A stretch of 47,584 nucleotides of DNA from an uncultured bacterium (GCA_965541585.1 CBEUCH010000020.1:1-47584), one strand, 5' to 3'. Shown: positions 18,963 to 23,114, counted from the stretch's first letter. The notes: generated by a model from the letters alone, not told the origin. Made by a program: numbers and translations.

Positions 18963-18990
18963 GGCAAACTCTCTCAAGGCTTGACAGTTA

Positions 18991-19731
18991 TTGCAGCCTG
19001 CACAAAGCAAATTGCGTTTGATCAAATTCCCGCCGTTGACAGAGGCCATCTTCGTAAAACGGCTCAACCGTTTCACGGTTAGAGTAATCATCGATGACAA
19101 AACGGAAATAGCCCATCTGCATGATCCCGGCCGCCTGCAGGAACTCTTGATTCAAGGAGCAACGCTTTATCTCAGGAGAGCAAACGGCAAAAATAGAAAA
19201 ACCAACTGGGATGTGATTCTTGTCAAGAAGGGCCGTCAACTGGTAGCCATATACTCCACGTTGGCAAACCGGCTGCTCGCCCATCTATTGAGAGAGCGTC
19301 AGCTTCCCGGGCTTAAAGAGTGGAGGTTTGCCAGGAGCGAACCCCGATTCGGAAGGGGGAGATTCGATTTTGAACTAGCCAGAGGAAAACGACGAAAGTT
19401 TGTGGAGGTAAAATCGGTATCACTGGTGGAGAACGGCATTGCAAAGTTCCCCGATGCTCCCACTGAGCGGGGCAGGCGGCATCTAAGGGAGTTGGCGGAT
19501 GCTGTTAAGATGGGTTACAAGGCTATAATTCTGTTTGTCGTCACGCGTCATGATGCCGAATCTCTGCGGCCGAACTGGCAGCGAGATCCAGAATTTGCCA
19601 AAGCACTTGATCATGCTATAAGACAAGGTGTTAAGGCTATAGCATTCAAGTGTAAGATCAAGAGAAAATCGATGGTTCTTGATTGTCAAATCCCAATTTA
19701 CCCCGGGGAACGGAATCGAAAATGCCCATAA
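18991..19731 (+). CDS. sfsA: SfsA-family nuclease (sugar fermentation stimulation protein)
   Basis: KRLNRF, HDPGRLQEL, RFDF..VEVKSVSL and FPDAPTERGRRHL. Confidence 0.93.
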   Translation: MQPAQSKLRLIKFPPLTEAIFVKRLNRFTVRVIIDDKTEIAHLHDPGRLQELLIQGATLYLRRANGKNRKTNWDVILVKKGRQLVAIYSTLANRLLAHLLRERQLPGLKEWRFARSEPRFGRGRFDFELARGKRRKFVEVKSVSLVENGIAKFPDAPTERGRRHLRELADAVKMGYKAIILFVVTRHDAESLRPNWQRDPEFAKALDHAIRQGVKAIAFKCKIKRKSMVLDCQIPIYPGERNRKCP

Positions 19732-19912
19732 GAGATTCGGAAATCCTCACAATATCCTATCGAACTTTTAAGACCTGATTGATCTGAGTTTGTTGGCAGG
19801 TTGACAAAAATCTTGGCTTTAATCCGGATAAATCATCTTTAGTCATAGCAAAATCGAACATCTTTCGAATCTTACATCTTGTGAAATAAGTAACAAAGTG
19901 CCCAAATATGAG

Positions 19913-19941
19913 TTGACAGCAACAAAGGCCAAACTTATGTT
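19913..19941 (+). promoter_or_regulatory. Putative sigma70 promoter of the dcd locus
   Basis: TTGACA-N17-TATGTT, about 50 bp upstream of ATG 19991. Confidence 0.5.
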
Positions 19942-19990
19942 CTACCAAATGGAAACTGCTCGAAGGCGTAGCTGAAGAAGATGGAGAATA

Positions 19991-20161
19991 ATGGCAATCA
20001 AGCCAGATAGCTGGATCAGGAAAATGGCGCTGGAACAGAGGATGATCGAGCCGTTTGCCGAAAGCCAGGTGCGAAACGGGATCATCTCCTATGGAGTCTC
20101 ATCCTACGGCTACGATATCAGGATATTAAGCAAAAAATATTTCATAGGATTGGTATTATAA
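19991..20161 (+). pseudogene. dcd: 5' fragment of a canonical dCTP deaminase gene
   Basis: Hand translation [45 protein letters not shown] matches the usual Dcd N-terminus. After 20125 it reads into AT-rich sequence and stops at TAA 20159-20161. RBS GGAG upstream. Not in the ORF track. Confidence 0.88.
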
Positions 20162-20183
20162 TTATTCGATAAAGGAGGTTACG

Positions 20184-21188
20184 GTGTCGATATTGGCGGC
20201 TGATAAAATAGAAGAGCGACTCAATGAAATTTTCATAGACGGAACATATGATGTAAGCAATATTGCGGAGGCAACATACTGCTTAAGATTATCCAACAAA
20301 TACCTGTACGTCAACGAGACGTGGTATGACGATGACGAACCGGTTTTCGAGAAGATTACTATTAAAAGAGGCGATATAGTATGTCTTTCGACCATCGAAG
20401 AATTCAAGATGCCGAATAACCTTGTTGGCCATTATGATCTCAAGTTTAAGAAGGCCATCCGTGGATTAGTGCTTTTGAATGGTGGTAGGGTTGACCCTGG
20501 ATATGGGGCAAAAGTCGAGGGCAAACCAGACAATACGGGCCAAAAATTGTTCGTATTTGTAATGAATATGGGGCCCGATGTGGATATCGATGTGGGAGAA
20601 CAGATTCTTATTGTTGAATTTCACGTAATAACAGGAGAAGCAAAAGTTAACGAAAAAGTTAGGCAAGATAACCACATATATGTAAGAAGATTTATTGAGG
20701 ATGTAGAAAGTAGGGAGAAATACGGTTTCCTTCCTGACTATACAAAACGTGTCAAAAAGGTCGAGAGCAAAATTGATCGATTTGCGAAATATCAGAATTT
20801 CTTGCTTCTTGGTATTGGTGCTATATTATTAATAACTTTACTCGGCGTTAGCGCTAGCTTTCTTTTAGCGTATACCTCATGGAGTAGTGACAGGCAAGAA
20901 ACATATCCTCAAAAGTATGAAGAATCACATAAACCGTTCAAATCTATTTGGCACGTTAAGGATACAGTTTCAGTTGATGATAGCTTATTTGTTCTTTTCA
21001 ATTCTGCTGTAAATCCAAAAGTTGGCGAATATTTACAGATTGTTAAAAAGACTAAAGTAAAGGCTGGCGACAATTACGAAGATGTTGGAGTCGCAAAGGT
21101 AGTCCGGAATGTAAATGGGGAAGTTAAGGCAGTAGTATTAGATCAAAACGAGATATTTAAGGGAGATTATTTTCTTGTCAAAAAATAG
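20184..21188 (+). CDS. Degenerate dCTP-deaminase/dUTPase-fold domain, single TM helix, C-terminal beta-rich domain
   Basis: RBS AAAGGAGG; MSILAADKI..ATYCLRLS, LSTIEEFKMP and GGRVDPGYG match the Dcd fold; hydrophobic run FLLLGIGAILLITLLGVSASFLLAY; AT-rich. Confidence 0.75.
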   Translation: MSILAADKIEERLNEIFIDGTYDVSNIAEATYCLRLSNKYLYVNETWYDDDEPVFEKITIKRGDIVCLSTIEEFKMPNNLVGHYDLKFKKAIRGLVLLNGGRVDPGYGAKVEGKPDNTGQKLFVFVMNMGPDVDIDVGEQILIVEFHVITGEAKVNEKVRQDNHIYVRRFIEDVESREKYGFLPDYTKRVKKVESKIDRFAKYQNFLLLGIGAILLITLLGVSASFLLAYTSWSSDRQETYPQKYEESHKPFKSIWHVKDTVSVDDSLFVLFNSAVNPKVGEYLQIVKKTKVKAGDNYEDVGVAKVVRNVNGEVKAVVLDQNEIFKGDYFLVKK

Positions 21189-22344
21189 AAAACAGATCGC
21201 GGATCTAGGAATAGCCGTTTCGGATAGTGGCATTCTAACCGATTCAATATTAAAGCGTGCCTCAGAGCTAGGGATCTTACAAAGCGACGAGCCTATTGAA
21301 CAGGGGCAATATCAACCTGCAAGCCTTGACCTACGGATAGGGAAGAAGGCATTTATTCTGAGATGTAGTTTTCATCCGTTTCGAGGCGTTACTAGGTTAT
21401 TGGATGATGCTTTTGAGAAACTAGTTATAGACACCATTGATTTGACCGATGATAATGGAGCTTTATTGTATCCTGGTAAAGTATACTTGATTCCTTTAAT
21501 GGAAAGTATCTGCTTACCGTCATTTTTATATGCCAAGGCGAATCCGAGAAGCACAACCGGTAGATTAGATATATTCTCTCGTGTACTAGGGGAGACTACA
21601 GATAATTTTGATTATTTCCCCCCGGGAACTGATTCAAAGTTGTTTATTGAAGTTATACCTCGTTCTTTTCCAATACGAATTAGAAAAGGTTGTTCGCTTG
21701 CTCAATTACGCATGATTCATAAAACGGAAAAAGTTAAGCAGCAAGATCTTGAATACGCTCATAAAAAACATGGATTAATCCTCGACAAATATGGCAACAA
21801 ATTAAATTGGCGTGATAGGTTTGAAAATGGCGGTATTTATCTCAGCCTTAATCTATCGGGCCTTCACAAAAATGGTATCGTAGGCTATAAAGCGAAAAAA
21901 TATACGCAGGCTATAGAATTTTTCCGTAACAATTATTACGATCCTATCCATTATTGGGACCCGATTTATCCTTCTGAAACATCTTCGATTATCCTTGAGC
22001 CAGAGGAATTCTGTATTTTGTCTTCCAATGAGAGAATTATCGTTCCTCCAAATATGGCTGCCGAGGTAGCCCCTTATGATGTCTCTGTTGGAGAGATTAG
22101 AACTCATTACGCGGGTTTCTTTGATCCGGGATTCGGCTATAGTATTAATGAAAATATTGGATCACATATAGTGTTGGAAGTTCGTGCCAGAGAAACACCT
22201 TTCTTGGTAGTTGATTCACAGATATTTTTTAAAGTACACCTAGAAAAACTAATAGGTAAACCGGAGGAATTATATGGCAAGCATCGGGGATCCTCATATC
22301 AATACCAGGGTCTGAAGCTTGCAAAGCAATTCAAGAATAATTAG
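21175..22344 (+). CDS. dcd: Long two-domain dCTP deaminase (2'-deoxycytidine 5'-triphosphate deaminase family)
   Basis: QPASLDLR, ANPRSTTGRLDIF, LFIEVIPRSF, RTHYAGFFDPGFG and C-terminal SYQYQGLKLAKQF; overlaps the upstream gene by 14 nt; AT-rich. Confidence 0.88.
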   Translation: MSKNRKQIADLGIAVSDSGILTDSILKRASELGILQSDEPIEQGQYQPASLDLRIGKKAFILRCSFHPFRGVTRLLDDAFEKLVIDTIDLTDDNGALLYPGKVYLIPLMESICLPSFLYAKANPRSTTGRLDIFSRVLGETTDNFDYFPPGTDSKLFIEVIPRSFPIRIRKGCSLAQLRMIHKTEKVKQQDLEYAHKKHGLILDKYGNKLNWRDRFENGGIYLSLNLSGLHKNGIVGYKAKKYTQAIEFFRNNYYDPIHYWDPIYPSETSSIILEPEEFCILSSNERIIVPPNMAAEVAPYDVSVGEIRTHYAGFFDPGFGYSINENIGSHIVLEVRARETPFLVVDSQIFFKVHLEKLIGKPEELYGKHRGSSYQYQGLKLAKQFKNN

Positions 22345-22407
22345 ACGTCATGTTTTAGTTTCGGCTATTTATTATTCTCAAATGAAGAACGCGAAAAAGG
22401 GATTTAA

Positions 22408-22458
22408 GGCAAATATCAAAAACAGGTGGATATCACTTATCCCAGGATCGACGGATGA
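22408..22458 (+). pseudogene. dcd: 3' fragment of the canonical dCTP deaminase gene
   Basis: Hand translation GKYQKQVDITYPRIDG-stop resembles the Dcd C-terminal GKYQxQxxITxPxI motif; an in-frame TAA precedes it. Short, so less certain. Confidence 0.68.
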
Positions 22459-22562: not shown

Positions 22563-23114
22563 TTGAAGGAGATTCGCCTGCACGGAAGGGGAGGACAGGG
22601 TGTGGTTACGGCAGCCGAGTTGATCGCGCATGCCGCATTTGCCGATGGCCGGTATGCCCAGGCGTTTCCGGCTTTCGGATCGGAGAGGATGGGCGCTCCC
22701 GTGCAATCCTTCGTTCGAATCTCTGATAAACCGATCAGGGCAAGAAATCAGATTCACAATCCCGATTATCTCATAATCCAGGATTCAACCCTGTTAGGCA
22801 CGGTGGATGTTATAAAGGGGCTAAAGCCCGGCGGCCTGATGATAGTCGACAGCGAGAAAAATCCTGAAGATCTCAATGTCAGGATCGATGGGAGGATCCT
22901 CACCATACCGGCTTCCAGGATAGCGCTTGAAACAATAGGCAGGCCGATTCAAAACACAACGTTGCTGGGATACTTCGCGGCCACAACCGGTTTAATATCA
23001 TTTGATGCTGTTAAGAAAGCGATTGAGGAACGATTCCCGGGTATGATCGGCAAAAAGAACGTGGCTTCGGCACGGAAGGCCTTTGAGATGATAGAAGAGG
23101 GCGCCAATGTCTAA
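22563..23114 (+). CDS. porC: Pyruvate/2-oxoacid:ferredoxin oxidoreductase gamma subunit
   Basis: EIRLHGRGGQGVVT and FGSERMGAPV; RBS AGGAGG. Confidence 0.93.
   Translation: MKEIRLHGRGGQGVVTAAELIAHAAFADGRYAQAFPAFGSERMGAPVQSFVRISDKPIRARNQIHNPDYLIIQDSTLLGTVDVIKGLKPGGLMIVDSEKNPEDLNVRIDGRILTIPASRIALETIGRPIQNTTLLGYFAATTGLISFDAVKKAIEERFPGMIGKKNVASARKAFEMIEEGANV

Follow-up and report, generated by a model that had tools for sequence, protein, structure and literature searches.

What has happened to a native gene when both of its ends are still in place and its middle is occupied by two other genes of the same fold? This question is raised by the dcd locus (dCTP deaminase, Dcd) at positions 19991 to 22458 of a contig from an uncultured bacterium (GCA_965541585.1, CBEUCH010000020.1:1-47584); the whole contig of 47,584 nt was analysed and is called the window. 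The initial annotation of this DNA had proposed that dcd was hollowed out and replaced in place by an AT-rich two-gene cassette. Our preferred explanation, to which we assign a probability of roughly two in three, is a recent horizontal, non-orthologous displacement of dcd in situ, with the second gene of the cassette (gene B) covering the native function. In the following, G000 denotes the genome of the window (3.5 Mb, assembly about 98% complete), G001 and G002 its congeners, and all other G-numbers relatives from the phylum.

In both congeners an intact dcd of 561 nt lies directly upstream of porC, close to the 550 bp that had been predicted for relatives, and five further family genomes that were opened have the same intact dcd-porC order (7/7 in total). 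Nucleotide identity to the congeners ends at 20121 (dcd nt 131) and restarts at 22406 (nt 509). The 5' stub (19991..20121, + strand, dcd nt 1-131) is 87% identical to G001 and 90% to G002. The 3' stub (22406..22458, + strand, nt 509-561) comprises 16 codons and the stop, has no start codon, and is 96% and 89% identical to G001 and G002, respectively; nhmmer finds it genome-wide with E=3.8e-4. Between the stubs an insert of 2,284 nt (20122..22405) stands in place of 377 nt of dcd. The missing 377 nt are absent from the assembly among the matches listed (tblastn with the Dcds of seven relatives, and blastn), and an nhmmer profile of 29 dcd genes did not recover them from the assembly either. With nt 132-508 gone, the locus represents a replacement and not a simple insertion, as had been claimed. 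The alignment to congener dcd also agrees with the proposed last 16 codons and stop, the native part beginning 2 nt earlier at 22406. The proposed first 45 Dcd codons, in contrast, have to be shortened: the 5' end is native, but only for 43 whole codons and 2 nt, codon 44 being chimeric and codon 45 belonging to the insert. The stub reads on into a chimeric open reading frame (ORF) of 56 aa (19991..20161, + strand) with 44 Dcd and 12 insert-encoded residues, which matches PF22769 with E=0.014, below the cut-off. A 45-residue N-terminal piece finds a match in 37 of 40 relatives, each in an open frame of at least 142 aa; here the frame has 61 aa.

Foreign DNA occupies the position of dcd nt 132-508 and both native gene ends are retained. 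The locus therefore combines a foreign gene at the ancestral position, an inactivated ancestral gene and conserved neighbours, which is the pattern of displacement in situ. Such events are normally deduced from trees, long after their traces have vanished. Here, the two ends of the displaced gene and the ancestral allele of the congeners make the junctions readable to the base, and the locus is a well-preserved single case of non-orthologous displacement in situ.

The insert is 94% coding and carries two genes on the + strand. Gene A (20184..21188, 334 aa) begins with GTG, 4 nt downstream of a Shine-Dalgarno-like run read from the sequence (20171..20179). Gene B (21175..22344, 389 aa), a tandem dCTP deaminase, begins with TTG, its first 14 nt being shared with the end of A. 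The AT-richness noted initially is borne out: the G+C content (GC) is 37.9% in the insert, 49.2% and 52.6% in the flanks and 48.9% in the genome. GC at third codon positions (GC3) is 0.36 in A and 0.33 in B (genome median 0.56), and both genes rank in the bottom 1-2% of the 2,073 long ORFs, in GC as well as in GC3. The codon use of the 5' stub is host-like. This stub differs from the congeners by 2-3 non-synonymous and 8-14 synonymous changes (3 and 10 between G001 and G002), and the 3' stub by 0-1 replacements. The stubs are free of frameshifts and have few replaced residues, and the insert has not been ameliorated; together, this points to a recent event.

The displaced gene behaves as a core gene of the phylum. 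A native-type Dcd is present in 268 of 284 other phylum genomes; for the high-quality genomes the figure is 195 of 198 if the stub of G000 is included. No other copy was seen hollowed; the only hollowed dcd is the one filled with Dcd-fold genes. Every other match has E<=2e-43, the stub of G000 7e-23, and the five weakest phylum matches are genes cut by contig ends. Dispensability of dcd was considered for three family genomes without a DCD match and was rejected, because a contig ends at the locus of G011 and porC, too, is missing from G012 and G013. The native enzyme is of the TIGR02274 type and has Glu instead of Asp at the water-activating position. The catalytic Glu is lost in 7/10 family members, 8/8 further order members and 1/11 others (29 aligned sequences, loci L005-L033); in 15 of the 18 order genomes it is replaced by Ser, Gly, Ala or Gln.

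Gene B is by its distribution and phylogeny foreign to the host lineage. Neither 13 family genomes nor 10 further genomes of the order contain a match with E<=1e-30, and the four matches in 284 class genomes show about 31% identity. Its nearest relatives are two metagenomic proteins (77% and 76%), followed by proteins with 43-48% identity, and together with these two it forms a clade on a long branch in a tree of 26 selected rows. Among the matches listed for tblastn with native Dcds, B is not reported. Independent public runs contain pieces of B with 98% (268 nt), 96% (265 nt) and 89% (564 nt) identity; thus, B-type DNA exists independently of this assembly.

Gene B matches NF005734 (PRK07559) with 388 bits (cut-off 283), contains the domains PF06559 (DCD_N, 161 bits) and PF22569 (DCD_C, 219 bits) and finds the Agrobacterium structure 2R9Q with E=3e-88; its predicted model has a mean confidence (pLDDT) of 88. 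Across 46 aligned rows, residues S126, R130, Q177, H311, A313, F315, D317 and E335 do not vary. Roles were assigned with Glu138 of the E. coli enzyme, taken from the titles of mutant structures, and with Ser111 and Arg115, which we take to be the equivalents in E. coli numbering. In a dCTP deaminase-dUTPase with both functions (DCD-DUT), Ser102, Asp119 and Gln148 are required for dUTP hydrolysis and an aromatic residue replaces Arg126 in bifunctional enzymes, according to PMC3360063. Gene B has all four counterparts (S126, D317, Q177 and F315), if the mapping across its two domains is accepted. According to PMC5519681, the active sites lie between subunits and the base pocket involves Ala115, to which A313 of gene B corresponds. 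We infer that the product of gene B is active both as a dCTP deaminase and as a dUTPase, with a single composite site, to which the N-domain would contribute Ser126, Arg130 and Gln177 and the C-domain His311, Ala313, Phe315, Asp317, Glu335 and the lid.

Which function was lost, and is it restored by B? All three PF22769 matches in G000 fall inside the cassette, and A and B are the sole genes of the Dcd/dUTPase superfamily found there. The searches of G000 did not find PF00692 or PF08761 (both dUTPase families), ThyA or thymidine kinase; it carries ThyX, a dCMP-deaminase-like gene, a cytidine deaminase, UDG and MazG. The dCMP-deaminase-like gene was named by Pfam and motifs, lies below the ComEB cut-off and is also present in 22 of 23 relatives. 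A canonical dut was found in none of 24 genomes, all 12 PF00692 matches falling on Dcd genes. Compensation by B is plausible, since no other dcd or dut was found in G000 and B is the only candidate replacement. The loss of the near-universal dcd would then be tolerated because B covers the native function. The initial annotation proposed that the module restores the function it destroyed. In favor of this, dcd is core and B keeps every catalytic residue checked, but the function in question may not be deamination. Given the dCMP-deaminase-like gene and the loss of the native Glu, the dUMP supply appears to be backed up and dcd is perhaps kept for dUTP clearance. The native Dcd of the order may thus act as a dUTPase, which is a guess, and what B restores may be dUTP removal rather than deamination. 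Presumably, B does the work of the native enzyme, most likely dUTP clearance together with some supply of dUMP to ThyX.

Several points weigh against displacement with compensation by B. The case is known from one genome only, and neither a second A-B pair nor another hollowed dcd was found. Three high-quality phylum genomes have no dcd match, even if the locus of G011 is at a contig end and G013 also lacks porC. The dCMP-deaminase-like gene and MazG offer alternative routes. The catalytic position is Glu in G001 and Gln in G002, and the ancestral allele of G000 could have been either. The bifunctionality of B is predicted from motifs that had to be mapped across two domains. Finally, a dcd-like signal in the spacer between B and the 3' stub, described below, is borderline, being one of four tests of which three parallel ones were negative.

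The initial annotation had also suggested that restoring the lost function could make the module hard to lose. A stronger version of the functional argument would be an addiction by substitution: if the native enzyme was the sole dUTPase, the cassette, or at least B, became indispensable upon landing, and A hitch-hikes by its coupling to B. The missing dut in 24 genomes, the near-universality of the native gene even where its catalytic Glu is lost, and the presence of UDG fit this idea. However, many prokaryotes have no known dUTPases, as stated in PMC5122711, and G000 has MazG and an alternative route to dUMP. The native Glu at the water-activating position makes the assumed dUTPase activity a guess, the single genome shows no spread, and B alone would suffice, so nothing protects A. 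We regard addiction as rather improbable, at about the same level as the two-step history discussed next.

The junctions bear on how the cassette may have landed. An integrase or transposase, stated initially to be lacking, was not found among the window ORFs scanned: none is present in 23 ORFs of at least 120 aa outside 14-29 kb (Pfam; three without family), while the ORFs within 14-30 kb were judged by eye and five of them profile-scanned. The insert shows no target duplication, no terminal repeats, no copy elsewhere in the assembly and no N, and thus the hallmarks of integrative or transposable elements (integrase or transposase, att or target duplication, terminal repeats) are lacking. A 5-nt direct repeat (20114-20118 and 20122-20126) is too short to carry weight. 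For a blind hit on dcd (561 nt in a genome of 3.5 Mb), the odds are about 1.6e-4, which makes guidance by homology attractive. The 61-nt spacer upstream of the 3' stub (22345..22405, + strand) weakly resembles the part of family dcd genes that precedes the C-terminus, with a best local score that was also attained in 4 of 300 shuffles and in 5 of 210 windows of the insert; it is possibly a decayed dcd remnant. Recombination at the shared motif 1 was rejected, since the 62 nt past the 5' junction resemble native dcd, A or B no better than shuffled sequence does (score reached by 85, 104 and 212 of 300, respectively). The likeliest route is integrase-free recombination, for which a dcd-like stretch in the donor may have served as a guide.

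The alternative is that a larger mobile element first entered dcd or its vicinity and that later deletions took the machinery and the 377 nt, so that the sole cargo under selection remained. This would account for the missing integrase and target duplications and is compatible with variable DNA upstream of dcd and the patchy occurrence of sfsA. It is rendered doubtful by the 2,284 nt themselves, which are 94% coding and hold no relic of mobile machinery, and by stubs that look fresh; DCD cargo in dcd would still be a coincidence.

While gene B resembles an enzyme, gene A does not, and the designation as a two-gene dCTP-deaminase cassette holds for B only: in A, the Ser of motif 2, the catalytic Glu and the Gln of motif 4 are all missing. 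Both are Dcd-fold proteins, as proposed initially. The protein consists of a Dcd/dUTPase fold (residues 1-150), a helix or coiled coil (184-205), a transmembrane helix (about 206-224) and a small C-terminal domain of low confidence. The model (pLDDT 80, low beyond residue 240) shows one long helix from 184 to 237 that includes the hydrophobic segment, and its fold is closest to archaeal dUTPases and DCD-DUTs. Gene A is below the cut-offs of Pfam and NCBIfam (TIGR02274 37.7 bits vs 92.8) and has no PF00692 match. F88 is found at the position of the motif-2 Ser, F125 at that of the catalytic Glu and Ile at that of the motif-4 Gln; D104 alone is kept, and R102 occupies the blocking Arg position. 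By these features A is neither a dCTP deaminase of the TIGR02274 type nor a trimeric dUTPase or DCD-DUT. Its relatives comprise 401 clusters at 50% identity (E<=0.001). Because the motif-2 Ser is present in 3 and the catalytic Glu in 0 of the best 150 family rows, the loss of catalytic residues is a family trait. In these rows, 123 of 128 long members have a membrane-like segment past residue 150. A search of the ESM Atlas with A returned only matches to the Dcd family below 0.9, the C-terminal part having no named match. Judged from these features, gene A encodes a Dcd-fold pseudoenzyme with a coiled coil and a membrane helix, not a second deaminase. Structure prediction of A (1-180) together with B gave an ipSAE of 0.00 in two runs. 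Gene A would have arrived as cargo, a catalytically dead, membrane-anchored and presumably trimeric Dcd-fold protein; its most likely role is that of a deoxynucleotide-binding sensor or anchor, and its most likely source a nucleotide-conflict cassette.

Distant relatives of A provide some genomic context. Distant genes for Dcd-plus-membrane-helix proteins reside in low-GC cassettes with genes for the 5-hydroxymethyldeoxyuridine (5-hmdU) kinase helical domain, TIR and Nmad2; on plasmids, distant A relatives have ImmA/IrrE, MazG and base-hypermodification neighbours at 2/3 loci opened. Pfam assigns the 5-hmdU kinase helical domain to neighbours of distant A-like genes. This domain adjoins the Dcd-plus-membrane-helix genes at L054, L057, L072 and L073; L057 also has a ThsB-type TIR and Nmad2, and L072 and L073 have thymidylate-synthase-like neighbours, as judged by eye.

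Could the cassette be a nucleotide-conflict (anti-phage) system in the first place, with compensation as an incidental effect and the loss of dcd tolerated via dCMP deaminase and MazG? B would then skew the dCTP/dUTP pool, or A would sense a phage-driven change and act at the membrane. The neighbourhoods of the distant A relatives are in line with this, as is the occurrence of tandem DCDs with GNAT proteins as accessory low-GC cassettes at eight unrelated loci in 284 genomes. Nucleotide domains also occur in validated and predicted defence systems: 5-hmU kinase and thymidylate synthase are newly validated defence domains and dUTPase is a predicted one in PMC13092281 (DefensePredictor). However, PADLOC 2.0 has no model for A or B (at E<=1, neither these two nor the chimeric stub hits any family). 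The context stems from relatives of A with about 25-30% identity and not from its close clade, the GNAT-linked DCDs have His for the dUTPase Asp in 6/6 rows whereas B keeps the mainstream Asp, and the landing in dcd is left unexplained. We consider an origin of this kind unlikely, slightly more so than the two alternatives above. Still less probable, and offered as speculation, is a combined scenario: A-B would be a selfish or defensive unit lacking an integrase, which reaches dcd by recombination, secures itself by taking the place of the sole dUTP-clearing enzyme of the host and senses deoxynucleotide pools through A. If true, A would represent an undescribed family of membrane-anchored Dcd-fold pseudoenzymes acting at the membrane, e.g. 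during phage infection.

An artefact of assembly or binning, whether a chimeric join or a single path through a strain-level bubble, is very improbable even for a genome known from one assembly, because each of G001 and G003 has both flanks collinear on a single contig, the junctions contain neither repeats nor N, the missing middle of dcd is on no other contig of the bin among the matches listed, and there is no reason for Dcd genes to be placed there. Three public runs share 5-7% of the window words; among the contigs listed, none bridges a junction or covers A. In one public contig, 46 dissimilar letters precede a match that begins exactly at 22406, as would be the case for the intact allele of a relative, and a mixed population may carry both alleles. 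A second A-B pair was found neither in metagenome contigs nor in GTDB genomes (two weak partial matches) or viral contigs; the searches of phages (with B) and plasmids (with A) also gave no A-B pair. With B, the plasmid search returned 16 alphaproteobacterial records at 36-43% identity.

Recent displacement by a foreign enzyme, which we favor, has a close precedent in the xenologous gene displacement in situ treated in PMC1274311 (citing Omelchenko et al. 2003, Genome Biol 4:R55). As there, a foreign gene stands in the native place with undisturbed neighbours. The present incomer, however, is a distant two-domain paralogue accompanied by a non-catalytic membrane gene, and both ends of the displaced gene persist. 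The strict xenologous definition requires an orthologue of the displaced gene, which B (PRK07559 type) is not, the native gene being of the TIGR02274 type.

Gene B is like other tandem PRK07559 proteins (PF06559 and PF22569; 2R9Q) in passing the cut-off, in possessing both domains and in the residues invariant in all 46 rows; it is set apart by its long-branch clade of three members (43-48% identity to others), its foreignness to the host and its coupling to A. The signature of B and the predicted fold of A are also shared with bifunctional DCD-DUTs (M. tuberculosis 2QXX/2QLP, M. jannaschii 1OGH, B. halodurans 4XJC). In contrast to these, the motifs of B are split over two fused domains, and A keeps the Asp alone, carries the blocking Arg and is extended by a coiled coil and a membrane helix.

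Some integrative elements restore their target gene, such as e14 in icd and SXT in prfC. The present cassette is comparable as foreign DNA in a conserved gene whose function is apparently kept. It differs from e14 and SXT by the lack of an integrase and an att duplication; the frame is not rebuilt, and a different enzyme would act in trans. Anti-phage dCTP deaminases (NF041025) have a zinc-dependent fold. They share with B, as predicted here, the horizontal acquisition of a dCTP-consuming enzyme, but the fold is unrelated and neither A nor B is matched by NF041025 or PADLOC. In the literature covered, mainly freely accessible articles, neither a hollowed dcd nor a family of Dcd-membrane pseudoenzymes is described, although the DefensePredictor tables may contain Dcd-membrane systems. 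For enzymology, the locus raises the questions of whether tandem PRK07559 proteins are bifunctional, whether the native Dcd serves as a dUTPase in a phylum without dut, and which role the widespread Dcd-fold membrane pseudoenzymes play.

The gene order in the window is pepA, sfsA, the 56-aa Dcd-like ORF, gene A, gene B, the 16-codon Dcd-like end and the por operon. The sfsA gene (18991..19731, + strand) lies between pepA and dcd. It is not at this locus in G001, was detected in 2 of 13 family genomes and follows pepA in G007; sequence 5' of dcd is variable between relatives. The first gene of the por operon is porC (22563..23114, + strand), which is 3' of dcd in all seven relatives' loci opened. 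A promoter-like site of native dcd (19913..19941, + strand) matches 10 of 12 positions, with a perfect -35 and a 17-nt spacer, in a scan that yielded 8 sites vs 8.8 in shuffles and hence no excess. The -35 and most of the -10 are kept upstream of dcd in G001. This site now probably drives the cassette; A and B, located between the stub and the por operon, would owe their transcription to the promoter of native dcd. A terminator scan gave 0 hits (2.1 in shuffles), and no RNA data are among the listed public runs that share window sequence.

Two further arrangements of accessory DCD genes were observed in the relatives. In about eleven class genomes, an unannotated protein of about 415 aa bearing an HExGH-like motif has an accessory Dcd gene coupled to it or fused behind it (L058, L059, L061, L062, L064-L068, L070 and L071; one was tested and gave no Pfam match). 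The low-GC pairs mentioned above, found at eight unrelated loci in 284 phylum genomes, consist of a tandem DCD followed by a GNAT protein whose C-terminal part we assume to be ASCH-like: G002:C167 (L100), G016 (L098), G186 (L042), G191 (L045), G221 (L044), G241 (L043), G244 (L095) and G259 (L093). The tandem DCD of G016 (G016:C1, about 18983-20140) has an in-frame TGA and is either broken or recoded. His replaces the dUTPase Asp in all six of these DCDs that were checked, and all eight genomes keep their native dcd. The pair is a candidate nucleotide-conflict system.

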